Shown: positions 13,029 to 48,905 of the stretch, piece by piece
Position numbering within the stretch: position 1 is the first letter of the stretch
Layout of the letters: each line of letters opens with the position of its first letter
Assembly (NCBI GenBank): GCA_965644265.1
Contig: OZ286475.1
Span: 70,122,001 to 70,186,000, forward strand
From: Glycera tridactyla
Taxonomy: Eukaryota
DNA length: 64,000 bases
Reading direction: 5' to 3'
Notes under the pieces: generated by a model
Seen by the model: only the letters and a program-made list of their open reading frames with translations
What the model was told of the DNA's origin: nothing
Database searches by the model: none
Position numbers and translations under genes: made by a program

Positions 13029-14132
13029 TCACAGTTTATATAATTTGAAAGCCTTAGATTCAATCCAACTATCGTAGCTACTAGACCATCCCTTCCATTT
13101 GACATAATATTCTATCTTCCCCCGAATTTTCCGTTGTTTAATAACCTTCTCTATATCATATGTAGTCTCTTCATTTATTTGAACTCTCTGCAACTCAGAT
13201 TGATAGAAAACACCACCAATTGGATTATTATCCCAATCTTTTAATTCATACTGCGGGATATACTGATTAACTTTTAGTTTTATAATTCTAAATAACTCTT
13301 GAGTCCACTGCTCATCATATGCTTTATCATATGGTTGTCTTATAATAGATATCCTCACTATATCCCCGGCTTTATACTTATGTTTGATATTCTTTTTAGG
13401 GAACGGCTTTCGTCTACTGAATGGATTATATAATTTCTCCCAAATTTCAAAATTATCTTCACTCGTTACTAGGGCTGGTGCTTTCCCAGTGCTAGTATGC
13501 CTAGTATTGTTATAACTTTCAACTATTTTATCCAAAACTTTAACCCAACTAGTTGTTTTATATTTTCTCATATACGCAATGAGTTTTGACTTAATGGTTT
13601 TTATCGCTCTTTCCGCAATATTTGCTTTTTTATCTGTCTGTGCAAAGAATTGTTGTATCCCATTGTCCTTGAGATAGTTTGAAACAAATTTATTTTTGAA
13701 CTCGGATCCTAAATCTGACCTGATTCTCTCCGGTCTCACACCGGATACTTCGAAAATACTGTTCAATGCTTCAACAACCTCCCGCCCTTTGGTCGAAGTC
13801 ATTGGGCGTGCATGAATATATTTACTGAATACATCTATAGAAATTAGAATGTACGAATAACCATTATTTTGCTTGCTGTATTTTCGCATGAATGCAGTGT
13901 CGATATCATATTGATAATTGTTATAGGGTACAATTACTCTTGGTCTTGGGAATTTTGTTCTCACCTCACGTTGCAGTGTATAATATTCCTGTCCCTCAAG
14001 ATACTTGTCAACCTTTGCCTTTCCATACTTTTCTTCTGTTGAAGGCTTATTTTCAATAATTTTCCTTGATGAGGAAAAACTAGCAGGTGTACGAGGTTGA
14101 GTAGAACTCAGTTCTAAGAAATCTTTACCCAT
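13029..14132 (-). CDS. INT: Retroviral-like DDE integrase with C-terminal chromodomain
   Basis: QYDID, IDVFSKY, IRSDLGSEF, NIAERAIKT; YDIEKVIKQR...YYVKWKGW...DSWI chromodomain; intact. Confidence 0.95.
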   Translation of the reverse strand: MGKDFLELSSTQPRTPASFSSSRKIIENKPSTEEKYGKAKVDKYLEGQEYYTLQREVRTKFPRPRVIVPYNNYQYDIDTAFMRKYSKQNNGYSYILISIDVFSKYIHARPMTSTKGREVVEALNSIFEVSGVRPERIRSDLGSEFKNKFVSNYLKDNGIQQFFAQTDKKANIAERAIKTIKSKLIAYMRKYKTTSWVKVLDKIVESYNNTRHTSTGKAPALVTSEDNFEIWEKLYNPFSRRKPFPKKNIKHKYKAGDIVRISIIRQPYDKAYDEQWTQELFRIIKLKVNQYIPQYELKDWDNNPIGGVFYQSELQRVQINEETTYDIEKVIKQRKIRGKIEYYVKWKGWSSSYDSWIESKAFKLYKL

Positions 14133-14762
14133 CTCAATGTTTTTTCCAGTGTGGGAAAAGTATGATTTTTCGATTGTTTTGATTCAGAATCTGGTGATGC
14201 TAGAGTCCGTTTTCGCTTATTTCTAGCAGGTTTTCCGGGAGGTGGTGGAGGGTGTAATGCTCCTGCACTTGTTTGCATACTCCCTACAGACCCGAGTTCA
14301 GCTTTGCCTGACTGACTTTCTATTTGCTCGAATTCATTCATTTCTGCATGAGTGAACTGTTGATTAGGATGTGTGGTACCATCTGCATGTTCATCGCTAG
14401 TTTCATCCTGTTTTATATTGTGTCTAGTGCTCGATTCCTGTTCTGACATAATGTTACTACCTCCCCCCTCATGCATTACAGGACTTTGGAGCATTCTCAT
14501 GAGAATGTCAGTGATATTAATGTCATTTACCTCTTGCTCTCTTATGTTGATTTTCCCTGATTCATCCCAAGCAAGAACAGTTTTCAATGTTTTTCAGAAT
14601 GTTTTTACCATTGTCTCTTAGTGAAACTGGTATCTTATCTAGAATATTCGCTAATTCATCCCCGGTCCCACTCCCTTTCAAGTTTATGCAAGCCTCAGTT
14701 TCTGATTCAGCATCTTTACTCTTTTTGAGATTTGTATATTCATCAAACGGGATTGCAATCAT
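14114..14762 (-). pseudogene. Conserved Polinton hypothetical protein, frameshifted near 14590
   Basis: ORF 14562-14762 (LDKIPVSLRDNGKNIL) continues in another frame as 14114-14587 (LAWDESGKINI...NITDIL), resembling a recurrent Polinton LP..Y/R..KA..L...WD..G motif. Confidence 0.6.
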
Positions 14763-15117: not shown

Positions 15118-15753
15118 CTACTTTGGCGCATAGACTATTGTATCCTGTCCTGGAAAAATGCTTGTACGCAATTGGTGGAGGCGATTTCGGCGGGGTGATC
15201 GATCAATACACAGATATCCAAAATCATTGGATATTGCATCCATGTATGATTCCATCATTTCCTTCCCCATCTTCATCTGCTTCCCTATTATTTCTATTTG
15301 CAATAGATCAGACGACTCAAAGATGATGAGGTAGTGGGCATTCATATTTATTGTCCTACTAGATGGACCTTTACAGAAGAAATTCTGATTCATATATATA
15401 ACTGTTATGTTTTGATGATGTGACCCTCTTGTGAATAATACTTCAACATTTCTGCTTCTGCAGATGGAATCCATAAGATCGTCCAGAAAAACGAGACAGT
15501 GGGTACTAGTATTTTTGAAAAGATCGATATCAGATTGAGAAGGCACTCCTTCATGAAAATCAATATTGAGTCCACTCTTTTCCATCTCGTGAGAGATTGG
15601 TTGATAAATACCATAACAGTATAGGATTTTCTCAGGAGGTTCGTCAGGAAACATAGTCTTCACGTTATCCAGCAGTCTTTTGATCCATGTTGTTTTCCCA
15701 GATTGTGTTGATCCTGTTAGCACAATTGTTGTTGGAGAGATGAAAGGATACAT
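15118..15753 (-). CDS. ATP: FtsK/A32-like genome packaging ATPase
   Basis: Walker A GSTQSGKT, Walker B LVFLDDL, FTRGSHH, YMNQN; intact. Confidence 0.95.
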   Translation of the reverse strand: MYPFISPTTIVLTGSTQSGKTTWIKRLLDNVKTMFPDEPPEKILYCYGIYQPISHEMEKSGLNIDFHEGVPSQSDIDLFKNTSTHCLVFLDDLMDSICRSRNVEVLFTRGSHHQNITVIYMNQNFFCKGPSSRTINMNAHYLIIFESSDLLQIEIIGKQMKMGKEMMESYMDAISNDFGYLCIDRSPRRNRLHQLRTSIFPGQDTIVYAPK

Positions 15754-15970
15754 TTCGACTGTTCAAGGAGATCGCGTCTTTTGATATTTCAATTGCCTGC
15801 AGCTTTGCAATAAGCATTGGATAGAGAACTTCGCCTATATCGATAACCCGCTTGCGGAAACGCATGCGATCTAGAACGATGGACACCCACCCTCCATTTC
15901 GTTCTTCCTCTTTCCCAGAAGGAATGTAGTGAATTTTTAACTCTTCTGAAAACGTTACATGCAGCATCAT
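15665..15970 (-). CDS. DP71L/ICP34.5/PPP1R15 (GADD34)-like PP1 adaptor
   Basis: HVTF (RVxF-type)...ERNGGW...IVLDRMRFRKRV...EVLYPML parallels ASFV DP71L HVxF...ERKGPW...VAVDRFRFQRRI...ELLSAVL, as recalled. Confidence 0.75.
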   Translation of the reverse strand: MMLHVTFSEELKIHYIPSGKEEERNGGWVSIVLDRMRFRKRVIDIGEVLYPMLIAKLQAIEISKDAISLNSRNVSFHLSNNNCANRINTIWENNMDQKTAG

Positions 15971-16112
15971 ATGCGCAGTAAAACACTAGACGTGAAAGTA
16001 GGGAAAACCTTTGCATTGATGGCCTGTTATATGCAAGACACAATCTCATCAACTTGAAAAAAGTGGATAGTGAAGTTACTCGATGACTGTGTGAGTGTGC
16101 ATCCATAATGAG

Positions 16113-16560
16113 TCAATTAACACACCGATTTAATACATTTGCCCATGCACCTCCTATTTTATCACTCCCAGGGAATGAATTTGAATCCTGCAGCGGGATA
16201 ACATGCTCATCCAACCCGCATGAGAGAATCTTGTCAAAACTATGTGCATAAACAATTTGCCTAGCTACCGCTGCTTTCAAAGCTATTTTTATCACAGGTT
16301 GTTGTAAATATAGCTCATGACATAGTTCATATAACACTTCATCAAGCTGGCAAAGCCATTTATATGAAGGCGAGATCTGCTCATCCATGCGTCTCAGCAA
16401 TCGTTCATGCGTAGTATCCATTATTTCCTCCAGTATTGTTTGAGATTCATTGTGAAAGTGTGCTTTATTACGCAATAATGCTTGGAACATGCATTGATAT
16501 TTGAAAGATTTGAATGTGAAATCCTGAATGAAAAAGGGTGAGAGGCAACTTTCATTAGTT
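16113..16560 (-). other. NADAR (YbiA-like) domain at the pPolB C-terminus, probably catalytically degenerate
   Basis: NFY...LSPFF...KY...Q...KA...EEI...W...EVL...Q.P.IK.AL...IV...D...CGLD...D.NSFPG.DKIG matches the spacing of the NADAR consensus. Confidence 0.7.
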
Positions 16561-19500
16561 ATGATATAAAAGTTATTAGCTGGTATTGGAGTTAGAAGTA
16601 GATCCAGAGGTTCTGTATTTATTCCATCATCTAATATCTTCCTCTTGCAGTAGAAGTATGTGAACACTTTTTTCTTTTGCTGATAAGTGAGAACTTTACT
16701 TCCCTGTGATCTAATACCATGGTTTATATTTTCAACACCTGTTTTAGAGTCAAGAACATGTTTGAATATTCTATAAGGGTTTGATAAGTTCCATTTATTC
16801 ACACCCTTGGAGCTGAATTTACATTTTGTTTCATTCTTCAGTAGATAGCATTCAGATGAAAGAGAAATCATTTCATCACCAACAGCTTCTTGCTTGAATA
16901 ACCCAGGTGTTCTACTGTCAAGCTTGGTATGCTTTTCACAACAAGTTCGCGGGAGCCAAATATCTGCTCCATCTGGTAGATAAGGATCATTTGAACAGTG
17001 GAGATTCAATGTAGAAATGAATTTTTCCTTCATTTCAGGTTTCACTGCCTCTTCCAAACTATTGTGGGCAAGAGCCATATAAGCACTATCAGTATCCATC
17101 TCTGTATATTGAAAGCAATTTCTCGGGATATATTTATCGATGAAATCATAGTGAAAAGCAAGCATGTGTAATTTTGCATATTGTAAAACAAAATATCCGA
17201 GCTGGATCGGTAATTGTTCTTTCACCACATCAAGACCCATTTGTAATTCATAAAGCTCGCTGCCTAATTCAGTCATGTGACGGAATGTGGGTTTGTTCAT
17301 ATGTAATAAAAGGTCACTCTCACTTTGAGTATATTTCACACTTTGAAACCGCGATCTCTGTAATAATAAAGATCCGTAGGAACTATTACCTATGAGTTTC
17401 ATAGATTCACTTATGATTGAAAGCTTAGGATCGTCATCACCTCTTCGTCTTGCAGCAGTTACATCCTCTTCAAATTGTTTGAAACATTTTGCTTTGGAAA
17501 ACTCTACTACTTGATATATTTTGCTAACTTCAAGCCCGTGATCTATGTACCATTTGAGTAGAGGGGTTGCGAGTAAAATTTTATTTGCTTTCATTCCTCC
17601 TACAAGTGATTTCCAGGGTTTCTTGCTTAAATCATGTTTTTCAGCATGATCTTGCATGTGCTCTCCGATACAGTCAAAGGGTATATCAACTGTGCAAAAC
17701 AGTTGGGACATTTCGTGGAAATAAGCTTGTGGTTCTAGTTCATGCTTGAAATGTGAGCCCCATTCTTTCGGTACTGCAATGTCAACTTCTACCATCCCAA
17801 ATATCTCTGAAAGTACGGCTTGCAGTATCTGTTGCTCAGATATGTAAGTCTTATTAGCTCTATAGAATGCAGGGAGCAAGTGATCTGAGTTTGTATCCAT
17901 ATCATCGAAGAGCAGGCGTTCGTTTTGAAAGTCGCATTCCCACTTTTCTATGACTGTGTATCCTGATTTTTCCAAGAATAATTTCCTCTGCTGTGTCCTC
18001 GCATATCTCACTTGATGTTGTTTTCTTTCTTTCTCTGTTTTAAGATGTACATTCATACTACAAATAGCTGGATCATGCCCATGCCAAAAACACCCATTAA
18101 ACTCATACACTGTTTGAGAAGCAGCATCAAATCCATCAACTAAATAGGGACCTATTCTGAATTCTTTCCCACTATTTAATTTATGTATGATGCTCCGTCC
18201 TTCATTCATAATTATATTCTCCAACCACATATACATTTTTATATATTTGATCGGGAGACGTGGTTCGAATCTCTCATGCCTGCTTTGTCTCACATAGATC
18301 CCTACCGGCATATCTCTTGCTAATGAATGAAGGTATAGTGCATTCGCATCATATCCCACAATCGACTTGCACAACTTTTCACCTCTTATCAATGTTTCAT
18401 CTTTTTTGTGATGTCTGGTAAATATTATACTAGGTCCACCAACTATGTTCCTCTTTATGGTGTGGAATAAGTCTTCATCATCTTTCCCTATCAAACTAAA
18501 CGCTATTCGTTTCTCTCTCGCACTATTGAAAAGTAAATGTCTCGCAATTCCTGGTACTGATATAGCATTTTTGAAAACATCTATGCCCATATCTTCATAG
18601 AAGTTACGCATTTTTATCACACCTGAAATGAATGGACCAACATCAAGGTTGTTATAATACCTCAAGAAATCATGCATAGTTTCCATTCCATACTCATCCC
18701 AGGTGTGTAGGAGTCTATTATAGTTCTTCTCTCCTGAAGGTGGAGGATCCCCCTTCCCATCCCAACTTAAAAATTCAGACTCTAGAGTATTCTGCTGCTT
18801 CAAACTCGAGTAGAATGAATCATATGATGGAAGTGCAGTTTCTTCTAATTTGGCTGCTGAGGTTAACCATTCATATGGGAAGAATGATTTCTGTTCAGCT
18901 ATGTCAAATGCTTTAAGAAATCTTGCATAAGAACATCCTGGGGCTAGGAAATGAGAAACATCTAGGAAAAGGAATTTAGGAACTGCAATAGATGCATATG
19001 AATTACCCTTTTTTATCACATGTATATTTGACTTGCTATCAGTAACTAGATGCTCAATCAATTTACTCTTGACTAAATTTGAATCATATCTTGCAGAGTT
19101 GAAACCAAGAACCGGAACTTGAGAGCAATATTTCTCGAAATCATGCTTCAACTGCATAAGTCTATTTAGGATCAAATTACACTTGTTCTTCTTATTTTTC
19201 TGCTTATCCACAGTGTTATATTTAGCTTTCTTCTCAGCTAAAGTAGCGCTCTTTCTCTGCTGATGTAACAGTCTCTGATGAAATGAAATATCCTCATCTT
19301 CTTCATCATCTAATTCAATGTCGTTTATAAAATAGGTATTCTCCTCATTTGCATAGTCATCAGCTCCATAAACAGACTCTTCGGTGCTAGCATTTGATGC
19401 AGCTGAGCATTCATTTAGTAGAAAATGTTTGTGGCGAGCTTTTATCACATTCACACATACTTCCTGCGTTTGTAGATTTGGTTAGGAGATAATGACTGAA

Positions 19501-21530
19501 TCTTCAGTTGGATTTGTATGTTGGAGTTCCTCACGGTTTTGAGTTGATTGTAGGGTTTTACCGAGAGTAGTAGTATCCCTGATTTGATCAGAATCTGAGC
19601 TACTGAATAATTCAGTATTAGCACATTCTTCATCCTTTTGTGATTCTGCAGCAATGTTCTCCCATTTTATAATCAATTGATCCAGATCTTGTATAGCAGT
19701 GTTCCATTTTTTAAAACTCAATTCATTTATCTTAAAGGCAATCAAGTGTAGATAGTGATAAAAATCTCTTATCAATGTATTAGGATTTGAATCAATGATA
19801 CATTGAGGCGCAGAGAAACCGTCGATATTACTCCCCACACTAACTGAAATCGGGATATGCTCACTATTCCATACAAGGTTTTCTGTTACTCTATCATTGC
19901 TCGGTTTCAGTATTGCTTCAAAATCATAAACAATGAACCAATCAAAAGTTCGATCCTCACTTGCTACATTGATCCCATACTCCTGTAGCCTATCAAATAT
20001 TGTCTGTGGAATGCAGTGGAACCCTCCCGGAAATTTTGTTTTGGTTGCAACACTACAATGTTTCAAATGTTTTTTCACTCGCTTCTTTCTAACAAAATGT
20101 CTATAACACATGGGGCAGGCAAATTTCTTTGCATAGTCATTGAATGAAGTTATGTAACTAGCATGACGTTCATACATGTTAACATTCATAGAGTCAGTAT
20201 ACATATGATTCGATTCAAAGATGGTAGAGACTGAACCATCGGATAGCAAAGAAAAAATTTTCACACCAATCTGAAAACATTTTTCGAAATCATTCACATG
20301 AGCTATTTGAATACCAGTGAACTTCTTTGAATTATCTGGTGGTTCATCATTACAATAGCTTCTCCATTGTTCGTATTAACTTAAAACCCCACTATTTTAA
20401 GGACTGATAGCATTCGGTTTTTTACTTCGCAATCTATGTAGAGCAAGACATCTAAATAAACATAGTGAGTCTTGATAAGGAACTTGTCTTGAATCACATT
20501 CAAGCGAGATTACATACTTGTTTGATTTTATATAATCGGGGAGACTACCAACACCAAGCGCAAAATCAGTTTTATAAACAATGATGTGTATATTGGTTAT
20601 TAGATGTGGTTTCCATTTTGAATTTGGACGTTGTGATCTGATGAATTCAAATATATCTAATTCTTGTAATCTATTCACAACTCTCATCAAGTCCTCACTT
20701 TTTGAAATCATGATAGGATAGGGAAACAGATTAGCATTGACATATGGGATGAAATACCTATAACTCTGTCTCCCATTCATCTGATCCTCCTCCTCCCCAT
20801 GTGCCGTAGTCCTGCTTTCTTCATCTTCAGTAATTTTTTTAAGTATTATCCCAAATGCAAAGTTAACCTTGAATGTTGAACTCTGCTGTGCATAGACATA
20901 GGATAACCTTCGTGTTAGCTCATCGTATCCATCTTCCAGATTGTTTGTAGGGAAATTATACACACTTGAAAATTTCTTCTCTCGTTGATGTCGTAAGATA
21001 TGTTTTTTATTCTTGTTATACACTTCCTGTAGCTCATTATCTACTATCCCATCTTCACTAATCCAGGGTGGTGATGTCCAAGGTTCTTCTTGTAGCGTTG
21101 ACCTCTTTTCACCTCCATGCATTGATTCTCTATGAGTATACAACATTGTAAGGTTCGGATGCATGCTCCCACAATCAAAGCATTTATACTTTGCTGCCGC
21201 ATCGGAAGAATGGAATGCTAGATGTTGTGTGAGTTCATCTGAGTTTATGAATGCTTCATTGCAAAGATGACATGTTGAATGGTTGCAATGGGATATATGA
21301 TTTGAGAGTCGCGCTGTAGAGGAAAAGATCTTGGAACACTTGGAACAATGTACTTTCATATCCTCCATCTCATCACAACAATGCATGCGTCTCATATGTC
21401 TCTTCAAGTTATACATTCGCGTAAAATCCGCATTGCAGATATCACAGCAGAAGCGATGAAATTTTATGATAGGGTTCCTAGAGATTGTGGGTTGGGGTGC
21501 GTCTGTTAGTCCTGAATTACTCAATAGCAT
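16113..21530 (-). pseudogene. POLB: Giant ZnF-vOTU/TP-protein-primed DNA polymerase B with VSR-like nuclease insert and C-terminal NADAR-like domain; three in-frame stops
   Basis: ORFs 20397-21530, 19482-20297 and 16113-19454 share one frame (1806 codons; TAA at 20399, 20378, 19484). ExoI YDFE, ExoII FNSARYD, ExoIII YNNLDV; Pol A YDANALY, B KLIGNSSYG, C MDTDS; insert VDG...EFNGCFWHG. Confidence 0.93.
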
Positions 21531-21784
21531 GCTTCTAGTCCTCGTAGTTCCTCTATCATAGCATTGCGAACATATGGGTGAGCTGAATGTTGGAGTAGTC
21601 TGTTGAAATTAGAATTCGCAATATGTTGTTGCGAGAGTAGCGCAAGTCTTGAATGTACAATATCATCAGAGAGTAGATCATTCTGCGTGGCCCAGATAGT
21701 TAGTTGAGTAATGTCATTAAAACTATCCACTATGCTCTTCATAATTAGTGATGTCTCCTCTTTCGTTATAGCCTCCATCTTCAT
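21521..21784 (-). CDS. Hypothetical protein
   Basis: 87-aa ORF overlapping its neighbours in the co-oriented run upstream of pPolB. Confidence 0.5.
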   Translation of the reverse strand: MKMEAITKEETSLIMKSIVDSFNDITQLTIWATQNDLLSDDIVHSRLALLSQQHIANSNFNRLLQHSAHPYVRNAMIEELRGLEACY

Positions 21785-27042: not shown

Positions 27043-27450
27043 ATGGATAGTGGAACATACTTCGAGTGCCACTCATGTGATCGAATAGTGAATAGCAATA
27101 CGCGAGTTCGACTATGGGCATGCACTCACTCCATCTGCAATTCTTGTACTTATCAGATTGTTGATAGTGCATTCAGCTGTGTAGTGGTTCAGTTTCCAGA
27201 ATGTCCATTTTGTAGTTCTCCCATCTGCCTTCCAATATCCAATGCTTTGGATATGAAAATTATAAGTTTCATATCTGATTTACACATTGGAATGAGGAAA
27301 GAAGCGGAAGGTGTGATAACATGTATGTACAGAACTTGCTATAATAGCCAGTGTTCACAAGTATATCTTGTTCAGTCTACATGCACTTGTGACGAAACTG
27401 TTGTGTTCACCTACAAATCCCCAACCCATGACTTCTTCAGAGTGCAGTGA
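27043..27450 (+). CDS. C3HC4 RING-finger protein (putative E3 ligase)
   Basis: C-HS-C...C-T-H-SI-C-NS-C...C-PF-C spacing, plus a second Cys cluster. Confidence 0.7.
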   Translation: MDSGTYFECHSCDRIVNSNTRVRLWACTHSICNSCTYQIVDSAFSCVVVQFPECPFCSSPICLPISNALDMKIISFISDLHIGMRKEAEGVITCMYRTCYNSQCSQVYLVQSTCTCDETVVFTYKSPTHDFFRVQ

Positions 27451-27930: not shown

Positions 27931-28773
27931 TCAACAAACGCCGGCAAGTGTTGGTTGTAATGAACGCTCTGTAGTGGTAGCAGTTTCGGTGAGATCTCCA
28001 AATGGCAAGCATTCCGGATATGTGCGCTTCTGCTCAACTGTTCGGTGCAGGCTTCCGCAAGTACGTACCAAATCTATCGAAATAAAAACATTGAGTTCGT
28101 CTACAATCGTGCATAGATTCTCAAACTCGCGTATCCTGAAAGCAATACCAGGTACACCGGGAGCGATTTTCTTCTCGGACTTGGGAAAGAACCATTTTCG
28201 AGAGGCGATAGCGAAAACATTTTGCGTAACCTGAACCATATTTCTATCCCCGAGATGATTGAACAGTCGCACCTCTTCGTAGTTCTGTAGTTTTCGCACA
28301 GCTTCCCTAACACTGGGGAGGATTGTGATGAACTTCTTCCACTGCCCGAGAGTTAGCTGGATCCTCTTTCTTGACACTTCCTCCAAACGTGCGTTTTCCA
28401 GTGAGAAACGAACAAATGTGCCATCTGAGGAGATGTGCAAGATACGCTGATACCCTACGTCTGCTTCGAAGAATGAAACTCTTCTTCTCTTCAATGGTTG
28501 CTCCACTGGATGTTCGGATATCACCTCTGCAATCGGTTGAGTGGTTGGTGGTTGCTTTGCTATTGGTTGATCCATAATCGATAACTCCATCTTTGGTTGC
28601 TCGACTATCTCCAACTCTGGAAGACTGGCTTGTGAAGATTCATCTTCAATCGTTGTGACATCGATTGTTGAGATATCAATTTCACTGGCGACCTCTGGTG
28701 CTCGAATAGATGGATCAGAGAGCAAGTATGAATCATCTGATGAGGAAGGGTATCGGTTGTAGCTAGATGCCAT
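27931..28773 (-). CDS. PC4-like ssDNA-binding protein with acidic disordered N-terminus
   Basis: IQLTLGQWKKF and HLG...V.V......RKWF.......PG..GIAFRIREF..L repeats typical of PC4-like domains; degenerate C-terminal C..H....ECLP. Confidence 0.65.
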   Translation of the reverse strand: MASSYNRYPSSSDDSYLLSDPSIRAPEVASEIDISTIDVTTIEDESSQASLPELEIVEQPKMELSIMDQPIAKQPPTTQPIAEVISEHPVEQPLKRRRVSFFEADVGYQRILHISSDGTFVRFSLENARLEEVSRKRIQLTLGQWKKFITILPSVREAVRKLQNYEEVRLFNHLGDRNMVQVTQNVFAIASRKWFFPKSEKKIAPGVPGIAFRIREFENLCTIVDELNVFISIDLVRTCGSLHRTVEQKRTYPECLPFGDLTETATTTERSLQPTLAGVC

Positions 28774-29375: not shown

Positions 29376-29837
29376 ATGTTCTCTTCAACACTCGAGTAGA
29401 AAAATGATGGGAAGATGTGAATACCCTTCTTTATATAATTTCCATTGGACGCATGTGTGAACACCTGGCTGATTGCGGATGTTTAACAACTCATATGAAG
29501 TGTTAATGCATGTGATAATTTATCAATCTATGAAAGAATGGAAGCTGCTTTTGAAGATTGTTATTACCCTTAGATTTATGAATGAAGCATCACTGCTTTT
29601 GAATTAATTTGTATGGAGTTATGCCATCTACTATTCCCAAGTATGTTGAGGTAATAGACTTCAATAGTTTTCAGAATAATAACATTACAACTTTTACCCA
29701 TTTGAAGTGTAACAACTCTTTCAGAGTAAATCAATAAATATGTAAGAAGAGCATAAATTCAGAGGAAAGTGAGGTAAGCACTATAATTATCTATGATTCA
29801 TTGTAATATTCTATTATGATGATATAAGCACTATAAC

Positions 29838-29932
29838 CTATTGTGTTCTCGGGCGAGGTTTACAACCTTCACACCTTTTCTTTGTCTGCCGGAGCAAATC
29901 ATGTAGGATGCTCCTTACCCTCTTCCACTACT
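29838..29932 (-). repeat. Right terminal inverted repeat (95 bp)
   Basis: Exact reverse complement of 7656-7750. Confidence 0.97.
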
Positions 29933-29938
29933 ACAAGT
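29933..29938. repeat. Right target site duplication ACAAGT
   Basis: Matches 7650-7655. Confidence 0.97.
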
Positions 29939-30422
29939 AAATTGATTCCAAACGGTAGGGAAAAGTGACGGAACCAGCCGTAATGCAGTGCCTATAAATA
30001 CAATAAAAGAGACAGCGTCGTACTAGCCTCCTTGCACGGGAAGCATTGTTACGTCACAGTCAGTGGGTGATACTATGGTTACTGCCGATTCTTACATCAT
30101 CAAGCATCGCAAAGAACGCTGAGACGAAGACACGTATCTCCACAATACGTTATATAGGTCATCGATTCGGCACAGATTCTCTAACAATTCGATCAAAAAT
30201 GCATCTTTTATTGGTACTGATACATATTCGGTAATTTCGTTTGACTATGGAGAGTAATAAGTCAAGATATCATCAAATAAAATCGCCGATAATATCCATG
30301 AGATATTTCCAGAACCGTGGTATATTTGTCACAATATACCATGGGTCCGTATCTCACTGGTATAATGGACGATAGGATAGACGATAGGATACCGGCACTG
30401 GTGAGAACGTCGCAAAGGCATG

Positions 30423-30430
30423 AATGATGT

Positions 30431-30477
<47 letters not shown>

Positions 30478-30500
30478 ATGATGATGATGATGATGATGTT
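30423..30500. repeat. (GAT)n microsatellite
   Basis: Visible run; paralog near 48860-48950. Confidence 0.9.
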
Positions 30501-30840
30501 GTGTTTGTTGCCGTACTCCCCCGGAGTCCGTGGTGATTCAGCCTCGTGGAGTGCATGCATAGTATGGCTAGGGTGATAGATACATTCATGCTGAGTTTCT
30601 CATCTCCATTTCAACGGCGGATTTTTCGAGTTTGTTGTGATCTACGCCAGGATACGTTATTAGGTATTTTTTGATTGTACCAAAGCATTTCATCATCATA
30701 TATTGCTGCGTCTCATTTGATTTCGTTATACAGCTTTCAACACTTTTCATCCGACATTAGTTTACCCATAAATATTGTCTCGTAGCTTTGTGGATGTGAT
30801 GAACGAATCCAAGAGTCTTTCTGATAATCGATATGATATA

Positions 30841-31017
30841 GAGTGAAACCTGTCTTAAGTGAATAGTCACGGGACCAAATTTTTCTTTCACTTAAGACAG
30901 GATTTTGCTTAGCGCAGGACAATTATAGTGAGAAAAAAACAACCGGGCCGATTGTGGGGTATGTGCTTGAGACAGGATTTTGCCTCGCGCAGGTTTACTC
31001 TCGAGCAGGTTTCACTG
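30841..31017. mobile_element. Tc1/mariner-type MITE
   Basis: TA|(C/G)AGTGAAACCTG...CAGGTTTCACTG|TA; paralog at 49290-49467. Confidence 0.75.
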
Positions 31018-34000
31018 TATTCGAATTGGTAAGGCTCATCAAATGTGTCAAATGATGTGTGTAAAATCTATCATACAGCTCAAACGCTTGTACAGCAGCT
31101 ACCGATGTATTCAACCCCTGATTAATGGAGGGATGACTGTTAGAAAATTTACTTGATGACATTAAATCATGTATCATAATCACTGGTTTTGATGTGTTCA
31201 GAAATAGACCCGGTGAAGAGCTCCGTACCCGCCGACGACGCTTGGTGGTGTTGTCTAGCCGGCACAACACAATACCTCCTGGCGTTTTTATCGAGAACCA
31301 GGCTGGGTTTCACAGCCATCAGCCATTTCTTCTGACTAGACACTGCAGATATGGAGTAGCATTGATTCCCCAGTATTGCCTCTTGGTGACTCCTCATAAA
31401 GACACAGTATGGGCTCAAACTGGTCGTTGGTGGATGTTGAATCTGGCTATCTGGCCCTCTGCGCCTATTATTTGTGTGTGTCGTAGAATACAAACTAGCC
31501 CACCAGGGATACTGGTCGAGGGACAACAATTGATTCTAGTCTCTCCCTATTACTGGCTGGAAATGAATAGATGACAAGGAACCCCCTGCATCGAACATAC
31601 CCTTTTATTGATTACCTGAATGATCAACTGACTGATTGATTTACTGACTCATTGATTAGCAAGTTGATTTTATCAACTGAACAAGTAATTGTTATTTGCT
31701 TACCTGGCGGATTGATCAATCAAATGATCAATCGATTGGCTCATCGGTTGATATATTGATAGGTTATTTGGCTGATTGATTGATCAACTAACTGAATTGT
31801 TGTTCATCCGAAATAATCACAAAGACAGAGAGCTGCAACAGAAATGTGATTCATGTGCATGCCTATCTTAGCTCGTTAGAGATCCACTACCACCCTTTGG
31901 AGGGAGCACCAGATCAACGCCGGCATACTCATACAAGAACATAAAAGCAGATTTCTATTATGCATACATCGACCACAGGTTCACTGGAACGATAAATCTT
32001 TTGATTGATGGGTAAATTGTTATATTTTTCGGAGATATCTAATATCATCAAGGAGATCGGTGATCGGTGGATCTGCTGGTTGCTAGGAGACAGAGTAGTG
32101 TGGGTGGTATGATGTTGATGTTGTGAGGCTGATGGTGCAATAATCATGATGAGATGATGGTGGTGTGAATATAAAGTGATGTCATTTATGTGATGGTGAT
32201 GGGTCAATGATGATGATAATGATGATGGTGTGGATATGGAGTGATGTCACTAGAGTGATGGTGATGGGTAAAGAATTGGACAAAACCATTGTGGAAATTA
32301 CTGTTTCCATCTTTCTATCTCCCTGTACTCCTCCCACCCTTCTTGGCGACGACCAAACCACATTATCAATGGAGGCAGTACAGTTTATCAGGAGAAACTG
32401 GCAGTTATGACCGAAGACAGACATCATGAACTATGTTTATGCCTCCGCATGTTTGTGAGAGCCCATTTTCATCTCATAAATCAATGGAATTCTTCTTCTT
32501 TTTTGCTGGATATGTTCTATCCACTTACGGTTCAAAGGAGAGGGTGCATTCAACATTATGTGTGTGATATTGGTGATTTATTGGTGGTGTGAAGTCGAAT
32601 GTTTGATGATATGATAAGAGGATGATGGTTTGGATATAAATTGATTTCGATGATTTGATCGACGGTGATATGTTGTTGTTGTTGATGATNNNNNNNNNNN
32701 NNNNNNNNNNNNNNNNNNNNNNNNNNNNNNNNNNNNNNNNNNNNNNNNNNNNNNNNNNNNNNNNNNNNNNNNNNNNNNNNNNNNNNNNNNNNNNNNNNNN
32801 NNNNNNNNNNNNNNNNNNNNNNNNNNNNNNNNNNNNNNNNNNNNNNNNNNNNNNNNNNNNNNNNNNNNNNNNNNNNNNNNNNNNNNNNNNNNNNNNNNNN
32901 NNNNNNNNNNNNNNNNNNNNNNNNNNNNNNNNNNNNNNNNNNNNNNNNNNNNNNNNNNNNNNNNNNNNNNNNNNNNNNNNNNNNNNNNNNNNNNNNNNNN
33001 NNNNNNNNNNNNNNNNNNNNNNNNNNNNNNNNNNNNNNNNNNNNNNNNNNNNNNNNNNNNNNNNNNNNNNNNNNNGCTGATAATGATGATGGTGATGCTG
33101 CTGCTGCTGATGATGATGATGTTGCTGCTGCNNNNNNNNNNNNNNNNNNNNNNNNNNNNNNNNNNNNNNNNNNNNNNNNNNNNNNNNNNNNNNNNNNNNN
33201 NNNNNNNNNNNNNNNNNNNNNNNNNNNNNNNNNNNNNNNNNNNNNNNNNNNNNNNNNNNNNNNNNNNNNNNNNNNNNNNNNNNNNNNNNNNNNNNNNNNN
33301 NNNNNNNNNNNNNNNNNNNNNGAGGCTTCTGCTGCTGCTGCTGATGCGACAGGATGTGATGACGGTAATGATAATGGTGATGATACCATCGACAGGGATA
33401 ATCATCTCACCCTGGTGATTCAAGCTCGCATACAAAGTATGGCTAAGTTGATATATTCATGTTGTGTTCCTAATCTGTATTCCAACAGCGGATTCCTCAA
33501 ATTTGTTGTGATCGCGGTCAGGATAAGTTATGCTGTCATGGTTTCTTTGATCGTACCAAAGCATCTCTTCATCATTCTTTGTTGCGTCGTATCCTGGATG
33601 CCATCCTACCATCTGTACCTCCGCTGCCTGAATTTATAGGTTCGTCTTTGCCAGACTCATACAGCGGATCTCATATTAGGTGAGTTCTGCATCCAATAAC
33701 CACCTGTCCGAAGCAACCTCTTCAAATCCATCCAAATCTATCCAGCCAGCCTCTGAAACCACATCTGACTCCCATATTTTGTACGAATGGGAAATAAGCC
33801 ACGGTGTTTGATTGCAGGCTCTCGTTAATACGGAAGAAACGTGGAAGTTCGAATGACTCTGTATCAGGAACGAAAAGCCATATAATAGGATATCATGTCA
33901 TACATATATTCTGGGTCACGGTCAATCTCCACATACAGTCTTTGTGGCTCCAGATGGGAAATCACTTTCTTTTAATCCTGAAAAGAGTTGGTATACTAGA

Positions 34001-36299
34001 CACATCTCTGACTAGAACACAGGGCAGCGGTTTAGTGCATTGATAGTCACAAACGTCTCAAGGATTATCACCACATTGACCCACTACATTCACTTTCATA
34101 TTTGGATTTACTGCACAACACGCACCATTGAGTACAAGCATGATGTTAGCAGAATATATTATATGATGGTCTCACGTCGCTTATCCAGTGAAATGGCCTT
34201 TTCAGTCCTATTCAGTGACAGGCTAGATCAGGCTGGCCGCACATGCTAAATGAGGGAGTAGTAAGACATGTGAAGACGTATCACTTGAGACCCCACATTC
34301 TCACGCCCCTCTACTTGATTGCTCCAGACGCTCATGAACTTATATCGACACATCTCCAATCGAGGAAACAATACTGGACAGCTGCAGTGAAAGGGAATGA
34401 GCATGAATATGATCATGAATTAGACACCCATCATCATCTTGACATACAGACAAACAATCAAATAATTGAACCTGCTCTTCGGAAGTCACCTGCCCATACA
34501 GACTACTTGTTGATGCAATCGAGGGTGGTGTTCATAGGGGTTTGAGCGAGGGAGGGGGGCATAAGGCATTGATCATATGGCATTGGTGATGAAGGATGGC
34601 CATAAAGGTTGGAGTACATCGACACCGCCAACTTGAATTCGAAGATTGATGAAGATTCGACAGTGTCGGTACATGCATGGAGGCTATTGAAAAAAGCTTC
34701 ATAAATGTTCATCAGATGTCGATGAAACATAAGTCTCATTCCCATCTCATCCACGAATATGACAATACACATATAGATTGGCTCAATTTACAAATGGCTA
34801 AACACCCTGCCCCTCATCATCTTTAGAATGGAGTGTATGGTATTTCCATTGAATTTAGTGGAGAATACATCGGCATGAATATCACCTGGTGAAGATGGAG
34901 TGTTCCAGACATGTCCAAGTTGTGCTATGAAATGCACATATTGTTGTTGATAAGTAAAGATTGTGCGTGGCGCAAACGCGAAGCAGGTACGGTCAGAAAT
35001 TTTACCTTTGTCAGGCACTAGTATACTTTCACAGATATTTTGAGGCTCAGATGACCTAGCATCTCATCATATATTACATACGCAGATATATCAAAAGCAG
35101 CGAGAGACGCCATTCAGGTACCCCTCTTTCAGCTACCTAGTGGGGTTTAGAAGATGGAGGAATATAATAGAAAATGGTGAAGTATAGACAGAATTGAAGT
35201 TGAAAAAGCTTAGATTGATGTGACACACTCCATCACAGAGTTCATGCTTGACAAATGAGGGTGCTCTGTGAGCATGTGACCCTCTCTCTTGCAAGCTTGC
35301 CCTAATGGTGCCTGCTGACTCGCGAGTCACATAGGTCATCAGCAGCTGCCACATGATCTACGGTCAACTCTCTATATACACCTCGCCATATATTGAGAGG
35401 TCTCCAAATGTGATGAGCCATAACAGAGGAATTGCTTTCCTCTTGCTGACGGTTCAGTAGGCTCAGGGAGCGGTTGTCCTTTCATTCTTTCATCGTTTAT
35501 TCATCTCTTGGTTATCTAGTCCATAATCAATCTATCCATCTAAGCCAGTCCATCTTCTGTTTGTCCATCTGTTTGTCTATCTCTCAGCCTATTTATCTCA
35601 GGTACAATACCGGTTATATTCAGTTCATCAATGTCTTATAAGTAGCACCAACATAGAAAGAGTACACTTGTATATATTTGTCTTGCACAACGGTAGACAA
35701 AAGTCAGCATCAAGTATCACAGCGAGTAAGCGCTTTCATATTCAAGACAATCCTGAGACGATGTCTAGAATAATTAAATTCTTTATTCTCTCACCCCGTT
35801 TTCCATACTGCAGCATGAGTTCTGGCTTCTGGCATGATCAGCATCCGTCTCATTTTCACTGGATTGTCATGTTGCTGGAATATTGAGGCTTTCTCAAGGC
35901 ACGGTCAAAATGTAACTGTGATCCTCAATGTGCTTGCTTGACCATCTCTCTCTCTGTCTCTCTCCCTCTCCCTCTTTCTCTCTCTCTCATTCTACTCATC
36001 TGCCTGTCTGTCAGTCTGTATGTATGTTTGTCTGTCTGTCTGTTTGTCTGTCTGTCTTTCAGACTTTCGGGTTATCTATTGTCTGTCCACCTCATTATGT
36101 ACTTAATCATTCGTTTGAGCTACTCACAATTAATTCCCATACATGTGAGATCTAGTGTGCATCCACTGGGCCTGTGTGATCGTGCGCACACAGACACAAA
36201 AACATTTACACATAGACAAAGATAGACACAAAGAGAAACAAACTCACAGACATGCGTACCTACTCAAACACACACAAACACACACACACACATACACAC

Positions 36300-36336
<37 letters not shown>

Positions 36337-36340
<4 letters not shown>

Positions 36341-36478
36341 TAATAACATCAGCATATAACTATTGACAGAACACACGAACACACAGACAAATACATAATA
36401 ACATCAGCATATAACTATTGACAAAACACACGAACACACAGACTAATACATAATAACATCAGCGTATAACTATTGACG

Positions 36479-36551
<73 letters not shown>

Positions 36552-36590
36552 CACACAAATACATAATAACATCAGCATATAACTATTGAC
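36337..36590. repeat. Compound minisatellite: four 31-bp cores interleaved with (CA)n
   Basis: tacataataacatcagcRtataactattgac at 36337, 36392, 36447 and 36560. Confidence 0.9.
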
Positions 36591-39500
36591 AAAACTGACA
36601 TTGGAATTCAAAAGATGATCACAATCTCACTCCACAAACACTCAATGAAATACCTTTGACGATGCTCTTGAAGTGTCTGAAGTAGGTCTTGAAGGTCACC
36701 ATCGTTTGTTTAAAGAGGAATAAAACAGGATTGATAGCTGTCGTACCTCCTTGTACCGGGATATTGGCCTGTCATGAGTCTAGTAATTGCTGGGGTTATT
36801 GAATGCAATGTGGCTGAGATATGGACACCCATCAAAAGAGAAGAGGCAATTGTTGCGAGCAACATTCTTGATACACAATGCAGCGCTGGTTTGAATGGGG
36901 AAGAGTGAGTGATTCCAAGTGGACAGTATCGTTCACAATGGTGAGAAGGGCCCCTTCGGAGGGCTGACAAGAATGATCGCAGTTTCCTATTCAAGACTGG
37001 ACCTGCGTCATTACCCTGATCTGAATGATCTACACCTCTCAGTGAGGCGGGATCTCTGTGTGACAGTCACTGAGTGGAACCTCTTAACTCCATCACTCTA
37101 CTTTACTCATGTGTGAATGCTACTATTGGCAGTGATGTTGATTGTAGAGTGCTCAGCTCATGCACACAATTCTGCATTCACAGGGAGAAGAGAAATGCAC
37201 AAGCTTCAACAGGCCTGCCAAGGCATGTAATTGTGCTGACAGAGGAATTCGCTGGGCTTACAAGATTGCCACCCATTACAGTGTCATTCAGAAAATGATA
37301 TAGTATTATAGGTCGCCACAATGATAGATATTCAAGGATTGAGAGACACAAAAGGTCACATTTCTCCATGGATTAGATGGATGTTATGTTGTGATACATA
37401 TACATATACTGTATATGTTCCTGGTAATGGTGTTGTCCATATAACGAGAATCCATTATCGGGTGGTAGGGCTTAGTTGGCGAGACAATAGAATGACAAAG
37501 CTTAGGGTGGCGCCATGTGCCGCAAGGATGAGAAGATTATGATCCCACAGAATACGATATACTTATGTATATGAGCATGGTTACTGCCACAGGCCTTTTC
37601 AAATTGATCTATCGTAGGAATAGGAAGTGTTGCCAGCTACATTCTCGATACACAATGCAGCGCTTATATAAAGAGGGGGAGAGAGAGTGATTTCAAGTGG
37701 ATGGCATCGTTCACAAGGGTGAATGGGGCTACTTCAGGAGGGTGAGGAAAATGACCACGGTTCGCTTTTCAAGACCGGACCTGTGCCATTACACTGATCT
37801 GAATGATCTGCACCTCTCAAAGAAGATGGATCCCTGTGTGGCAGTCACTGAGTGAAACCTTCTTGCTTCATCACTTCACTTCACCGATGTGTGTACAGAT
37901 AGTTGGCTAAGTCCAGTGATGCTCAGTTCAGATTGCTCAACCAATGCAATTGATTCATCGTTCAAGGTCTAATACTCCCCAGGGGGATGAAAAAACTTGG
38001 ACGGACAGGCCTGCCAAGAAATGTGAATGTAAAGTTTGGTAGACTTGCTAAAGATATGAGAATGTGTGCCATCATACTTAAATGTCATTCCAATATTATG
38101 TGGTATTGGTGGTCACCACAAGGAAAGTTATTCAGAGAAATGAGAAATACCAGGCTATATTTTTCTATGGATCTCTTACATTGTGATACTTATGCACATA
38201 CCGATATGTTCTTGATCCTCATGATGTCCATATAAGGAGAATATTTTATCGTATTGTAGGGCTCAAAGGATAACACAAGTTGGCGAGACAATAGGATAAC
38301 AAAACTGAGGGCCGATCCCACGTGTCGCCAACTAGATGAGAAGCTCATTTACCAACAGAATACAATATATCTATGTATATAATCATGGTCATTGTCACAA
38401 GGCATTTTGAATTGATCTATTGTAGAGATAGGTGAGACAGTTTGGGCTGACTCGGATTTGACCATCACTTGTTTTTCCATTGCAAGATCAGGGATATAGG
38501 CAATATAAACATCATTGAATGGAATTTCACCCACTTCGGAGAGATTTGTTTGAACGATTCAATATGTTTTGTCTAGTCTACTAGCAGACATTGTCACGTG
38601 ACCATGGCTGTTAGTAGAATGGTCGAAACTCCATGAATCGTCTGAACAAGTCACTCCAAAGTAGGTTAAATTCCGTTCATCGTGAATAATCTGAGAATCA
38701 AGAACAGTCTCTCAGCAACTTCAGCGTTGTCACTTTCTGGTGCCTTCTGAAATGCATTGGATTTTGAATACAGTATGAGGGACCCTGCTTCTGGCAATTA
38801 ACGAGATGTGTATGAAGGAAATGGGACATACTCTCGAGTTTCTGACTCCTGGTTCACACTAGGATGAAAGTAGCTGAATTATATCCTTTATGGATGTCTT
38901 TTTAGAAAAGCTAACCCCTTCTCTGATGATCGACTCATGAATACACAGATAACCAGTAAAAGCACACAGTGCATTGCAAAGTGATGGCATCGAAAATGCC
39001 TGTATCTCAGCAAAGTGATAAAACCATGTTTCTCTCATGACCTGAGCCAATATGATGGAATCCCTGCTCCTTCTTGTGACATCACATCACTTCATCGCAT
39101 CACTCCTGCGGAACTGAAATAAACGTTGCTATGGCAAAGTTATCCTGTATACATGCTTCCCGTGCAGTTGTCAAGAAGATTGTCAGCATCGGCAGTAGAA
39201 ACACACGATCCTGGGTTTGCCTATGCATGCCCACACACACACTACACACACACACACACACATGCACGCTTGCAGTTTGGATCATCTTTTTTTCTCGGCA
39301 TGGCCGAGGCTGCAGCATTCCATTTCCAATAATCATTCACACACAGTTGTTAGAGAAAAGCATAAGTTCTGGCTCAGTGTGATCAGCTTGTTTTTCCCCA
39401 CTGGTGTCGCATTTAGTTAGGAAACACCGACCTTTCAAGAGGCTTTTGTAGCGTGGACAAGACAGACATTATCAACGATCCCAACGCAACAGTATCATTG

Positions 39501-42212
39501 ATTTTTGTGTATCATAATATCACCTTCAACAGGCGTTCCCTGGCAACAGATACATGCGTTGCTAAGCTCGAACCATGTCACTGGGGGCACAAGTTCATCT
39601 TCAGGAAAGCAAGCAACTCGATTCGTGGTGAATGAGTGAAAGTAATTGAAAAAAATTGAAAGGCTCTAAATGGAATGGAATGAGTCCATTACCCAACCTA
39701 GTTACCAAATATGGTCACTAAATGAAATATCAGTTGAGACTGAATAGGAAGTCGGCACCACCACCTTTGATTTCGTAGTCAGTACAAAGCAACTGTTCAG
39801 CTTTGTCGTCTTCACATAATCTGTTGTTGCATAGTTGTGTGATCTTCACATAATCTGTTGTGGCATAGTTTTGCAGTCTTCACATGATCTGTTGAGAGGT
39901 CCGGCTAACAGGGTGGTCTCATCCATCGAAAATATAGAGTGGCATTCTGTCGAATTATGGTCGAGAAATACAATTAAGTTTTGATTTGTTGGCGTGTTTA
40001 CCACGTTGTGAGATGATATTACATGGTTAATATATGAGTGGACACTGTCAGCTGCCAGCCTGCATGTCTCTCTCTTTTTCCCCCTACTTATATTATATTT
40101 CTACACAACACAACTCATGCTAGGTTGACTGCCTGGTTCTTTGTTTTTTTGACATCTCAAGCACCATTTGGGCTATGCCTGAACGCCTATGTGAGAGCAT
40201 TAGTTGGATTGCTGTTAAAATATGGTCCATTTTTTGTCATCCACACTGCAGTCCAAAACGAGAGGATAGATGTGACTATTGTGTGAGACCTATGCCACAC
40301 ATTAACTAGACGTTTTAGATGTCAAGATCTCTCCTTGAATGTCTAATCATAACGAGTCAAAACGTTTGTGATCAATAATATAACCGATTTATCAAGTTCC
40401 ATATATTGTCACAGTACATCATGCTTTTTTTCAAAATGCTACCTTTTGCATAAACCATGACTGGATATTGAAGATCATCAAGCAAAGACATCAATACCTT
40501 GCTGTCATAGGGTATCTTTATTTACCATGATTTTCTTGGCAACAAAATGACCCCCCAGAGAGAACAGAAGTACCACTCTCCTGATCAGACGAATCTACCT
40601 GTGCGCTCATGTGGACTGAGGTACAAAACGCAAACTAAAATCTGACAGCTCCGAATAGGGAACAGAACAAGATGGAACTCACAGACAGGCATTATTGACA
40701 TCTACAGGGAGTAAAAATGTGATCATGATGAAATGTATCTATCCATGTAACACCGGTGGATCCAATATGTCAATTTCAGTATTAATTGGGTGCTTGGTTG
40801 GTTTTGAATTAACGTCATATCACCGCCATATGTGCTCTATTACAATGGGTATTCATGGAATAATTTCAACACTTCTTCTCCTAGGTCCTCAGTGCAATAT
40901 CATGATGATCGTGAACACTCAAGATGGCGTCTTTGCTTCATAGTAATCAATGGATCGAATCACAGGGCCGCCACTTGGCTGGCTTTACTCATTCGGTGGG
41001 TGCAGACTTCATCAGAGAGTTTCATTCGATAATGCCGACAGATTCGTCCCATATGTGATTGAAGAGATACCTAATTCAATTTGGTATTGGGAATATGCAT
41101 TTGGCAAAATTCGAAAAATCTACAATGCCAATTGAACGCTTCGAGAAAAATCAGAATCAATATTGACACCAAATGATACAATCCTGCCTGAATACAGACA
41201 GGGCTGTTGCATGAGGTATCAATCATACATTTCATGTACAGTAAATACGTCTATCAAATAAACTTCGCAGATAACGAAGTGTATGCATTTTTGGCAATGT
41301 GGATAGCAAGAGGCTGAGCCAGTTGTTGGGGTAGAGCAGGATCTCACCCTGCTATTGATTGTGGTCAGTTTCATGCTATCATTGCAACACTGTCACATCC
41401 TATGTGCACAATGAACCATGTCAACGTTGGAGAAAAGATATCCATCTTTCTATTGAGCTCAGCTGATATATGGATATAGCAATATTGCATTGATTATATC
41501 TCCACCATTAATCATGCCAGATCCGTCCAGTGTGATTTCTATATCACTCAGACACTTCCTGGCAGCTGGGACTGAGCCATATTTGGCCTGAATACACAAT
41601 TTGCCAGCAGCTCCATGTATTTTTTTTCCTTTTTTTTCTTTTCTTTTCCTCCTTCTTCTTCTTCTTCTTCTTCTTCTTCTTCTTCTACTACTTCTACTTC
41701 TTCCTCTTGTTCTTCGCTCACCACCACCAGAATATTCCTATTGCTGAAAATGTACATAACAATAATGCTGATTCGCTCACTCTGCACCATATGATTTACC
41801 ATATCACATGTTTTCAATCTGTATTAACAATCAGCACTGAAATAGACACATTGCTTCACTGTTCTGTTGTTTCACTTCTGCTATACTACTACTGCTATAT
41901 CACTATTGCTACTACTACTGCTATTACTGCTACTATTACTACTTCTTTCATTATTATCATTATTTTTATTATTCTCATTATTATTGTCTTCATCATTACT
42001 AGTACTGCTATCACTACTACTCTCACCAACACCACTTCTACCATTGATTTCACTAACACTACTACTGATACTGCTGCTAAAACTACTTCTATGACGACGA
42101 TGGCGATGACGATGATGATTTCGATTGCACTACAAACTCTGCTTCAACTATTCCCAACACTACTACCGCTAACACTGCCCACTACCACCACCACCACTAC
42201 TACTACTACTTA

Positions 42213-42253
<41 letters not shown>

Positions 42254-42254
<1 letters not shown>

Positions 42255-44105: not shown

Positions 44106-44124
44106 ACTACTACCACTACTGCTG

Positions 44125-44159
<35 letters not shown>

Positions 44160-45629
44160 GATATTGATGTAGTAGTTGATCTTTTCTCAAAGTTTTCCTG
44201 TCCATTTGATGTTGAACTAGGGGGAGTGAAGAATAATTCGAGTTGAGCTGTGACCAATAGCCTCTATGTAGGGGCGGGGAAGTCCGACGAAACAGAAAGT
44301 ATATTTGTCGATGGTATATCCTTGAAACTGATGATGCTGTATACATATATATATATATATACATGTATATATATGTATTTTTGTTCCGTTATATCCTTTG
44401 TCACAAAAATGTAGCTACTCATTACTTATCACTTACTACTACTACTACTACTACTGCTACTACTACTACTACTACTTCTACTGATAAAATTACTGTTACT
44501 TCTATCACCTCTACTACAAACACTGTTTCTACTATCGCTTTTACTTAGGGTACTACTAACTTCTATTCATGTTACTGCTAGGACTACTTATACAACAATA
44601 GAGACTATGACGACGATGACGATTACGAAGGCGATGACGGTGAGGATAACGATGATGGCGACAATGACGTTTTGACGCTTATCCTTTTGTCATTGGATAC
44701 CCACCATTAGCTGTCTCTTTTGTCATTGGATACCCACCATTAGCTGTTTCCAATTATATGGAATGGACAGCTATATCACCATCCAATATACAAGGTATGG
44801 TGATCTGGTGAAGACGGAGTGGCTGCTTGAAAGCTTACACGCTTGTGAACCTGCGCTACCATCATTACCAAGATATTTAGTGCCCACTCGTGAGAGCCAA
44901 AGTCATCAGTACCCAGATAAAGCCACTCAGCTACACATCGCCATGAATATGGCTTTCCTTCTTCATGGTGGTGGCAACTTCAGAAAGCTTATTAGCTGGC
45001 CAACATGGCTGCCTGATTTTGGAGGGGTTTGTGATGAGCTCATNNNNNNNNNNNNNNNNNNNNNNNNNNNNNNNNNNNNNNNNNNNNNNNNNNNNNNNNN
45101 NNNNNNNNNNNNNNNNNNNNNNNNNNNNNNNNNNNNNNNNNNNNNNNNNNNNNNNNNNNNNNNNNNNNNNNNNNNNNNNNNNNNNNNNNNNNNNNNNNNN
45201 NNNNNNNNNNNNNNNNNNNNNNNNNNNNNNNNNNNNNNNNNNNNNNNNNNNNNNNNNNNNNNNNNNNNNNNNNNNNNNNNNNNNNNNNNNNNNNNNNNNN
45301 NNNNNNNNNNNNNNNNNNNNNNNNNNNNNNNNNNNNNTGTGAAGCTTTTGGACATGGTGGTTTCTGTACTTCATGAGAGAATCTTGCAGCATTCATAATT
45401 ATTACAATGGCTTAGTAATCGAATGATTGATTGAGTGATTGCATAATGTTCAACGTCTCTTCAATTCAGGCAGGATCACATGGAAAAAACGAATATAATG
45501 GTTGCCTAGACACTTTTTGAATAGCAGATAATATATTGTTCAATTCACCCCATGGGTAACATTTCAGAACACCATTGGCTGAACAGAGTAATACTGCTGT
45601 CCTTGAGCATCTCCATCTCTTTGCAAGTA

Positions 45630-48867: not shown

Positions 48868-48905
<38 letters not shown>

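Follow-up and report, generated by a model that had tools for sequence, protein, structure and literature searches.

The window, by which we mean the whole stretch of 64,000 nucleotides that was analysed, is repeat-rich animal DNA with assembly gaps. It holds a Polinton/Maverick element of 22,277 bp (7656-29932) with the ends AGTAGT...ACTACT; an AGT-AGT end motif of Polintons is described in the available text of PMC8097293. The terminal inverted repeats (left, 7656-7870, forward strand; right, 29698-29932, reverse strand) are identical to each other over the outer 95 bp and continue with looser similarity to about 215 bp. They are bordered by a 6-bp target-site duplication, ACAAGT, at 7650-7655 (forward strand) and 29933-29938. 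The empty insertion site, with a single ACAAGT at 48144-48149 (forward strand), was found in a paralogous segmental duplicate, the flanks of which are identical to those of the Polinton at 726 of 746 and 487 of 495 positions. This duplication is arranged in tandem, 1-7655 plus 29933-37218 corresponding to 37219-52350 at about 94-98% identity; a third, older copy lies near 53500-55600, and the Polinton is present in the first copy only. Elsewhere in the window there are pieces of non-LTR retrotransposon endonuclease/reverse-transcriptase frames at 56651-60263 and 60960-62660 (forward strand), and further fragments of such retrotransposons at 42545-43140 and 2400-2657, all labelled by eye.

Besides the AGTAGT-ended inverted repeats and the 6-bp target duplication, the Polinton features seen were reverse-strand genes for an rve integrase with a C-terminal chromodomain (13029-14183; Pfam rve E 2.5e-12, Chromo E 2.4e-7), an A32-like packaging ATPase of 211 aa (15118-15753; Pfam Pox_A32 E 1.3e-5) and an adenain-like protease (9233-9712; Pfam Peptidase_C5 E 0.0018, below the cut-off). 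The major capsid protein gene (9709-10998, reverse strand) is broken by an in-frame stop codon (10576-10578). It is 29% identical (E 1e-47) to an intact orthologue on L001 (JBEVXV010000193.1), a 6.9-kb contig with Polinton ATPase, integrase, capsid and protease genes that was one of 60 pattern matches. A poor model of this orthologue (pLDDT 38.6) found the capsids of PBCV-1 (E 1.8e-3) and Sputnik (E 4.3e-3) as its two best Foldseek matches, which weakly suggests that 9709-10998 is a double jelly-roll capsid gene. The region at 16113-21608 (reverse strand), which we take to be that of the protein-primed DNA polymerase B from motifs read by eye, is split into three separate frames: 20397-21608 with C2H2 fingers, 19482-20375, and 16113-19481, in which the polymerase motifs are accompanied by an embedded endonuclease and, at the C-terminus, by a NADAR domain. 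Synteny with L001 gave the same label, and no polymerase match was obtained for this region in Pfam, PHROGs or PDB. The endonuclease occupies about residues 349-418 of the polymerase, and an endonuclease embedded in this way is also reported, in the part of the source available, for the pPolB2 with a VSR endonuclease in mollusc Polintons (10.1101/2023.08.22.554363), a likeness that points tentatively to a host among marine invertebrates. The NADAR domain (16113-16560, reverse strand; residues 868-1004, Pfam E 1.7e-7) ends the polymerase, and the polymerase of L001 appears to stop without this part. A RING-like, cysteine-rich ORF is located at 27043-27450 within the element (forward strand; zf-RING_5 E 0.019) and is possibly an accessory gene for a ubiquitin ligase. 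The Polinton insertion is young but decayed, with the stop in the capsid gene and the polymerase in three pieces; the apparent breaks in these two genes may be assembly errors.

A small ORF (15665-15970, reverse strand; 101 aa from the first ATG) is situated between the polymerase and the ATPase, where the first-pass annotation had placed it, and all the residues which that annotation quoted were found here in one open frame. The ORF begins 143 bp past the polymerase stop, the C-terminal polymerase frame ending at 16113, and its codons 73-101 overlap codons 1-29 of the ATPase (which runs from 15753 to 15118) in another frame. Residues 73-101 had no reliable match to any family member and are probably a by-product of this overlap. 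The family core comprises residues 4-60 (about 15961-15791, reverse strand). The true start of the ORF is likely its second ATG, at 15967, because the Met1 of each of three relatives, P0004, P0006 and P0009, falls at that point in the alignment.

The ORF had been claimed to encode a DP71L/GADD34-like protein, and the matches in Pfam, in PDB and with an alignment profile agree in supporting this. Its sole Pfam match was PP1c_bdg (PF10488), at E 4.2e-4 and 20.5 bits against a gathering cut-off of 26.1, and it was the only one among 18 element proteins scanned to match that family. When the ORF alone was searched against PDB (177,635 sequences), the top four of the seven matches at E<=10 were DP71L, PPP1R15B (two) and PPP1R15A, the best being DP71L (9NB9 chain B) at E 0.0019. 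A profile of the ORF aligned with four relatives (alignment A1) matched DP71L at 7.5e-11, PPP1R15A at 1.3e-8 and PPP1R15B at 3e-8, with the next non-family match at 0.76; DP71L and PPP1R15A/B made up seven of the eight PDB matches of this profile at E<=1. PF10488 was matched by all five members of A1, with a best E of 7.1e-6. The profile search that had been proposed as a check was thus borne out in the family that it returned, and fell short in the Pfam score of the ORF itself. The top cluster of the ORF in the Atlas (0.96; 202 of 256 features) is mostly viral and carries PP1c_bdg on 16% of its members, and the single classified member of the third-ranked cluster is assigned to Preplasmiviricota; the Atlas recognition score of the ORF, 1773, is below the guide value of 2300. 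A word-indexed search with the ORF alone gave one candidate and no match, and there was no match for it in PHROGs. From these sequence comparisons we regard the ORF as a true member of the PPP1R15 (GADD34/CReP) family, of the DP71L/ICP34.5 type.

Relatives of the ORF were collected from 1.84 billion representative sequences by phmmer, which returned five matches at E<=0.001. Four were kept as family members, and P0001, a repeat protein of 2,122 aa that matches residues 58-88 only, was dropped as spurious. Profile searches added P0006, P0007 and P0009; P0008 is an ATPase drawn in by the tail of P0002 and does not belong to the family. P0002, from a contig of 1.6 kb, is a predicted read-through of 239 aa. 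Its residues 4-90 match the ORF in the frame of the ORF (E 1e-11), and its residues 104-233 match the ATPase of the window at 44% identity, so that P0002 represents, as judged from these alignments, a diverged sister element that has this gene, read in the frame of the ORF, immediately ahead of its ATPase. The copy in P0002 is decayed too, having no basic residue and a C at the position of R595. In a tree of eight short cores, P0002 grouped with P0004, P0006 and P0009 (support 0.91) and the ORF had no supported place; the comparison does not separate a host donor from a large-virus donor. P0004, P0006 and P0009 (89-92 aa) carry the F-x-x-R-I...P actin/eIF2 helix twice in tandem, the second copy, at residues 61-77, being equalled in none of 2,000 shuffles for each, and it is possible that they are bivalent variants. 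This second copy is absent from the ORF and P0002 and was not seen in the DP71L/GADD34 alignments here; a candidate for it in the ORF was rejected, as 929 of 2,000 shuffles were as good.

It could be argued that the resemblance to the family arose by chance, and that the overlapping frame 15789-16106 is the real gene or that there is none. The single-sequence E-values of the ORF in Pfam and PDB are modest, structure searches with its helix-only model were empty, and a codon-usage test over the 59 shared codons gave 0.5 for the ORF frame and 3.2 for the frame 15789-16106, a slight lean to the latter that does not discriminate between the two. However, the part of that frame outside the shared stretch is negative in the codon test, and the frame has no Pfam match, no PDB match below E 0.2 and no tblastn match among eight fetched proteins or in L001. 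A profile of seven relatives without the query gave it -1.0 bits. The same profile gave the ORF 61 bits, the best of 1,499 other six-frame peptides of the window 8.2, the best shuffle 12.3 (2,000 made, 1,898 scored) and the reversed ORF 2.5. The seven relatives had been found with the query and this control is partly dependent on it; the Pfam and PDB matches are independent. Conservation of the frame 15789-16106 in sister elements had been named beforehand as evidence against the family reading, and P0002 keeps the frame of 15665-15970 instead. Together, P0002 and the profile results largely refute a chance resemblance, to which we now give very little credence.

At the level of residues, we checked 16 family positions with published roles (available parts of PMC4394352, PMC10743859, PMC8500838 and PMC5346070). 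In the ORF, 11 are identical (V5, F7, H14, R24, W28, D34, R37, F38, R41, L49 and L53), three are conservative (I13, K40 and V42) and two are different, namely H4 (K555) and L33 (R587), at which DP71L also departs, with H and V. The candidate PP1-docking motif L-H-V-T-F (residues 3-7; 15950-15964, reverse strand) has its V5 and F7 aligned with V556/F558 (PPP1R15A), V641/F643 and V16/F18 (DP71L), and this V and F are invariant in all eight aligned sequences. The motif had been described as RVxF, of which the V and F stand and the basic residue does not: there is no K or R in the two places before the V, where six of the seven relatives have one. This lowers our confidence in the binding of PP1 by this copy, and does not lower our confidence in its descent. 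The linker from I13-H14 (the V564-H565 pair of PPP1R15A) to R24 (R578/R658) is at 15899-15934 (reverse strand); the hydrophobic pair V564-H565 and the arginine pocket of PP1 for R578/R658 are described in the accessible portions of PMC10743859 and PMC4394352. A helix follows from W28 to I60 (15791-15889, reverse strand), in which W28, D34, R37, F38, K40, R41 and V42 match W582, D588, R591, F592, R594, R595 and I596, and L49/L53 match L57/L61, the LSAVL leucines of DP71L. The downstream W...DR.RF..RI helix of the earlier claim is present, with W28, D34, R37, F38 and R41 kept and V42 conservative. In the model of the ORF, a helix is predicted with pLDDT 82-95 over residues 31-70 and the N-terminus is disordered, as expected. 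The coincidence of this confident helix with the actin/eIF2 helix of the family counts for the family reading. Foldseek with the helix-only model gave none of 24 BFVD rows at E<=0.001 and no PDB rows, a search that is uninformative for a disordered adaptor.

Among known members, the short form of DP71L (9NB9 chain B) resembles the ORF in its core-only architecture and in an H directly before the docking V. R24, W28, D-R-x-R-F-x-x-R and both LSAVL leucines are kept, and the C-terminal RARA/actin helix is lacking. The two differ in that DP71L has K two places before the V, where the ORF has L, and in that the linker of the ORF is three residues longer, its motif is at the very N-terminus and it has a 40-residue tail partly overlapping the ATPase. 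The carrier also differs, being a 22-kb integrating Polinton and not a large cytoplasmic DNA virus. PPP1R15A/GADD34 and PPP1R15B/CReP share their C-terminal core with residues 4-55 of the ORF, the common residues being V564-H565 (I13-H14 in the ORF), R578, W582, D588, R591, F592 and R595. Unlike them, the ORF has no ER-targeting N-terminus, PEST/eIF2-recruiting repeats, R612 or W616-R620 helix; R587 is replaced by L, and the length is about 100 aa compared to 674 and 713 aa. ICP34.5 of HSV-1, compared by its published description, shares the logic of an adaptor from PP1 to eIF2alpha (PMC10807198 and PMC5346070, in part), but the ORF lacks its N-terminal domain and Ala-Arg repeats. The family occurs in herpes-, asfar- and baculoviruses according to the available parts of PMC10807198 and PMC5704228, the latter mentioning the PPP1R15A homologues of baculoviruses.

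The contig L001, whose ATPase is 47% identical to that of the window, spans the element from the polymerase end to the protease and does not carry the gene (best 8.5 bits among 258 peptides). Its presence in a Sedimenticola MAG is probably due to binning contamination by host or viral DNA. A direct association of the gene with a Polinton was thus seen in two of the three elements examined and, because L001 is without it, the gene is a patchy Polinton accessory gene and not a core gene. What follows the polymerase in L001 is a small ORF (158-499, forward strand) that has a canonical RVxF-like motif close to its beginning and no W/DRxRF helix. It is overlapped across a homopolymer run by an ORF at 481-975 (forward strand), which looks PC4-like by eye and had no library match. 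A PC4-like protein is also encoded at 27931-28773 of the window (reverse strand; Pfam PC4 E 0.07, weak). The strict pattern [KR][KR]V[ST]F occurs in six frames exactly once in the window element and once in L001, adjoining the PC4-like domain in both and, in the window element, lying just before it; its chance expectation is not small and we treat it as a lead only. The product of 27931-28773 is possibly a second recruiter of PP1, or the motif is possibly a nuclear signal.

We consider it probable, by analogy with the known complexes, that in active elements of this lineage the ORF product serves as a PP1-actin-eIF2alpha adaptor which reverses translational shut-off. The N-terminal VxF would dock in the RVxF pocket of host PP1, and I13-H14 and R24 would extend the grip. 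The helix from W28 to I60 would use F38, R41 and V42 to hold G-actin and, on its opposite face, D34, R37 and K40 to hold phospho-eIF2alpha. With the helix stabilised by G-actin, phospho-Ser51 of eIF2alpha would reach the active site of PP1, as in the PPP1R15A and DP71L complexes, and removal of the phosphate would allow translation to resume. An active element could in this way still make its capsid and packaging (late) proteins when PERK-, GCN2- or PKR-like kinases fire. In molluscs, PERK of oyster has been tied to antiviral responses (PMC9680061, in part) and PKR-like genes have been described (PMC9334734, in part). What speaks against the proposed function is that both Polinton-linked copies, in the window and in P0002, are decayed. 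Whether the decayed copy of the window still makes a working protein is about evenly balanced in our judgement.

Two other explanations accept the ORF as a member of the family. Its product may aim PP1 at another target, such as innate-immune signalling, or may not use PP1 at all and act as a decoy. The docking motif without K or R beside an intact actin/eIF2 helix would fit such a role, and relatives are known to have further targets, since ICP34.5 also recruits PP1 to IKK-beta (PMC10807198, in part) and DP71L is reported to inhibit STING signalling (PMC11796124, in part). However, the V and F are invariant and the canonical motif is found in most relatives, and the residues that contact eIF2alpha (D588, R591 and R594, the last as K) are kept together with the DP71L leucines needed for eIF2alpha dephosphorylation; we find this role unlikely. 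The gene might instead be a passenger, a captured piece of host PPP1R15 or of a large-virus gene that brings no benefit to the element. Polintons are known as carriers of cargo genes (PMC11131425, in part), the distribution is patchy, with L001 lacking the gene, and both Polinton-linked copies depart from the family at key positions. Nevertheless, the ORF has its own start codon just before the motif, and it shares with its relatives a minimal layout of 70-100 aa. Furthermore, two elements have kept the gene at the same place although their ATPases share only 44% identity, and its key residues are still there when overall identity has fallen to about 30%; such retention is hard to account for without selection. 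A mere passenger seems to us quite unlikely, and a PP1-actin-eIF2alpha adaptor remains our preferred reading.

In our search of the literature, at the level of main texts, passages and abstracts, no report of a PPP1R15/GADD34-family gene in a Polinton was found. GADD, PP1 and eIF2 are absent from the main texts of PMC8502044, PMC11296320, PMC11131425, PMC8097293 and 10.64898/2026.10.13.758929, and the main text and map figure of PMC8502044 contain no gene of the PPP1R15 type. It is possible that a Polinton-derived member has already been annotated in a database, given the relative labelled Preplasmiviricota in the Atlas. The family and its mechanism are well known; the Polinton is a new carrier, for which we found nothing in print.

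The first-pass annotation had further taken the gene as a trait of an infectious virus rather than of a transposon. The finding is suggestive in this respect, but the gene is patchy and the copy is decayed. Host-control genes of animal Polintons and adintoviruses, including Bcl2, IAP, an Rb-binding oncoid and a gasdermin-like gene, are described in the available part of PMC8502044. By analogy, the ORF would likewise be a patchy accessory gene directed at host defence, although its target would be translation control. As Bcl2, IAP and oncoid genes were known in animal Polintons before, the present one adds to the virus reading and does not prove it.

The question whether the Polintons of animals are live viruses still stands, and a dedicated gene against translational shut-off is of a kind that herpes-, asfar- and baculoviruses are known to have. 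The gene offers a cheap and direct assay of the conflict between Polinton and host without virions, and it adds small integrating dsDNA elements to the carriers of the viral GADD34 family. Proteins of the minimal PPP1R15 type are being explored as inhibitors of the stress response (10.1101/2025.02.28.640897, in part), and natural variants, above all the relatives with a duplicated helix, would be informative for the mechanism. We also put forward, tentatively and with more doubt than confidence, that a lineage of animal Polintons has its own stress-response antagonist in a dedicated slot between polymerase and ATPase and that recruitment of host PP1 is a general strategy of these elements, in keeping with P0004, P0006 and P0009 as a sub-family with a duplicated helix and with a canonical KRVxF protein beside a PC4-like domain in both Polintons examined. 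If true, this would be evidence that Polintons, in a lytic phase in which particles are produced, are restricted by the eIF2alpha kinases of invertebrates, and Polintons would be a source of new minimal stress-response inhibitors.
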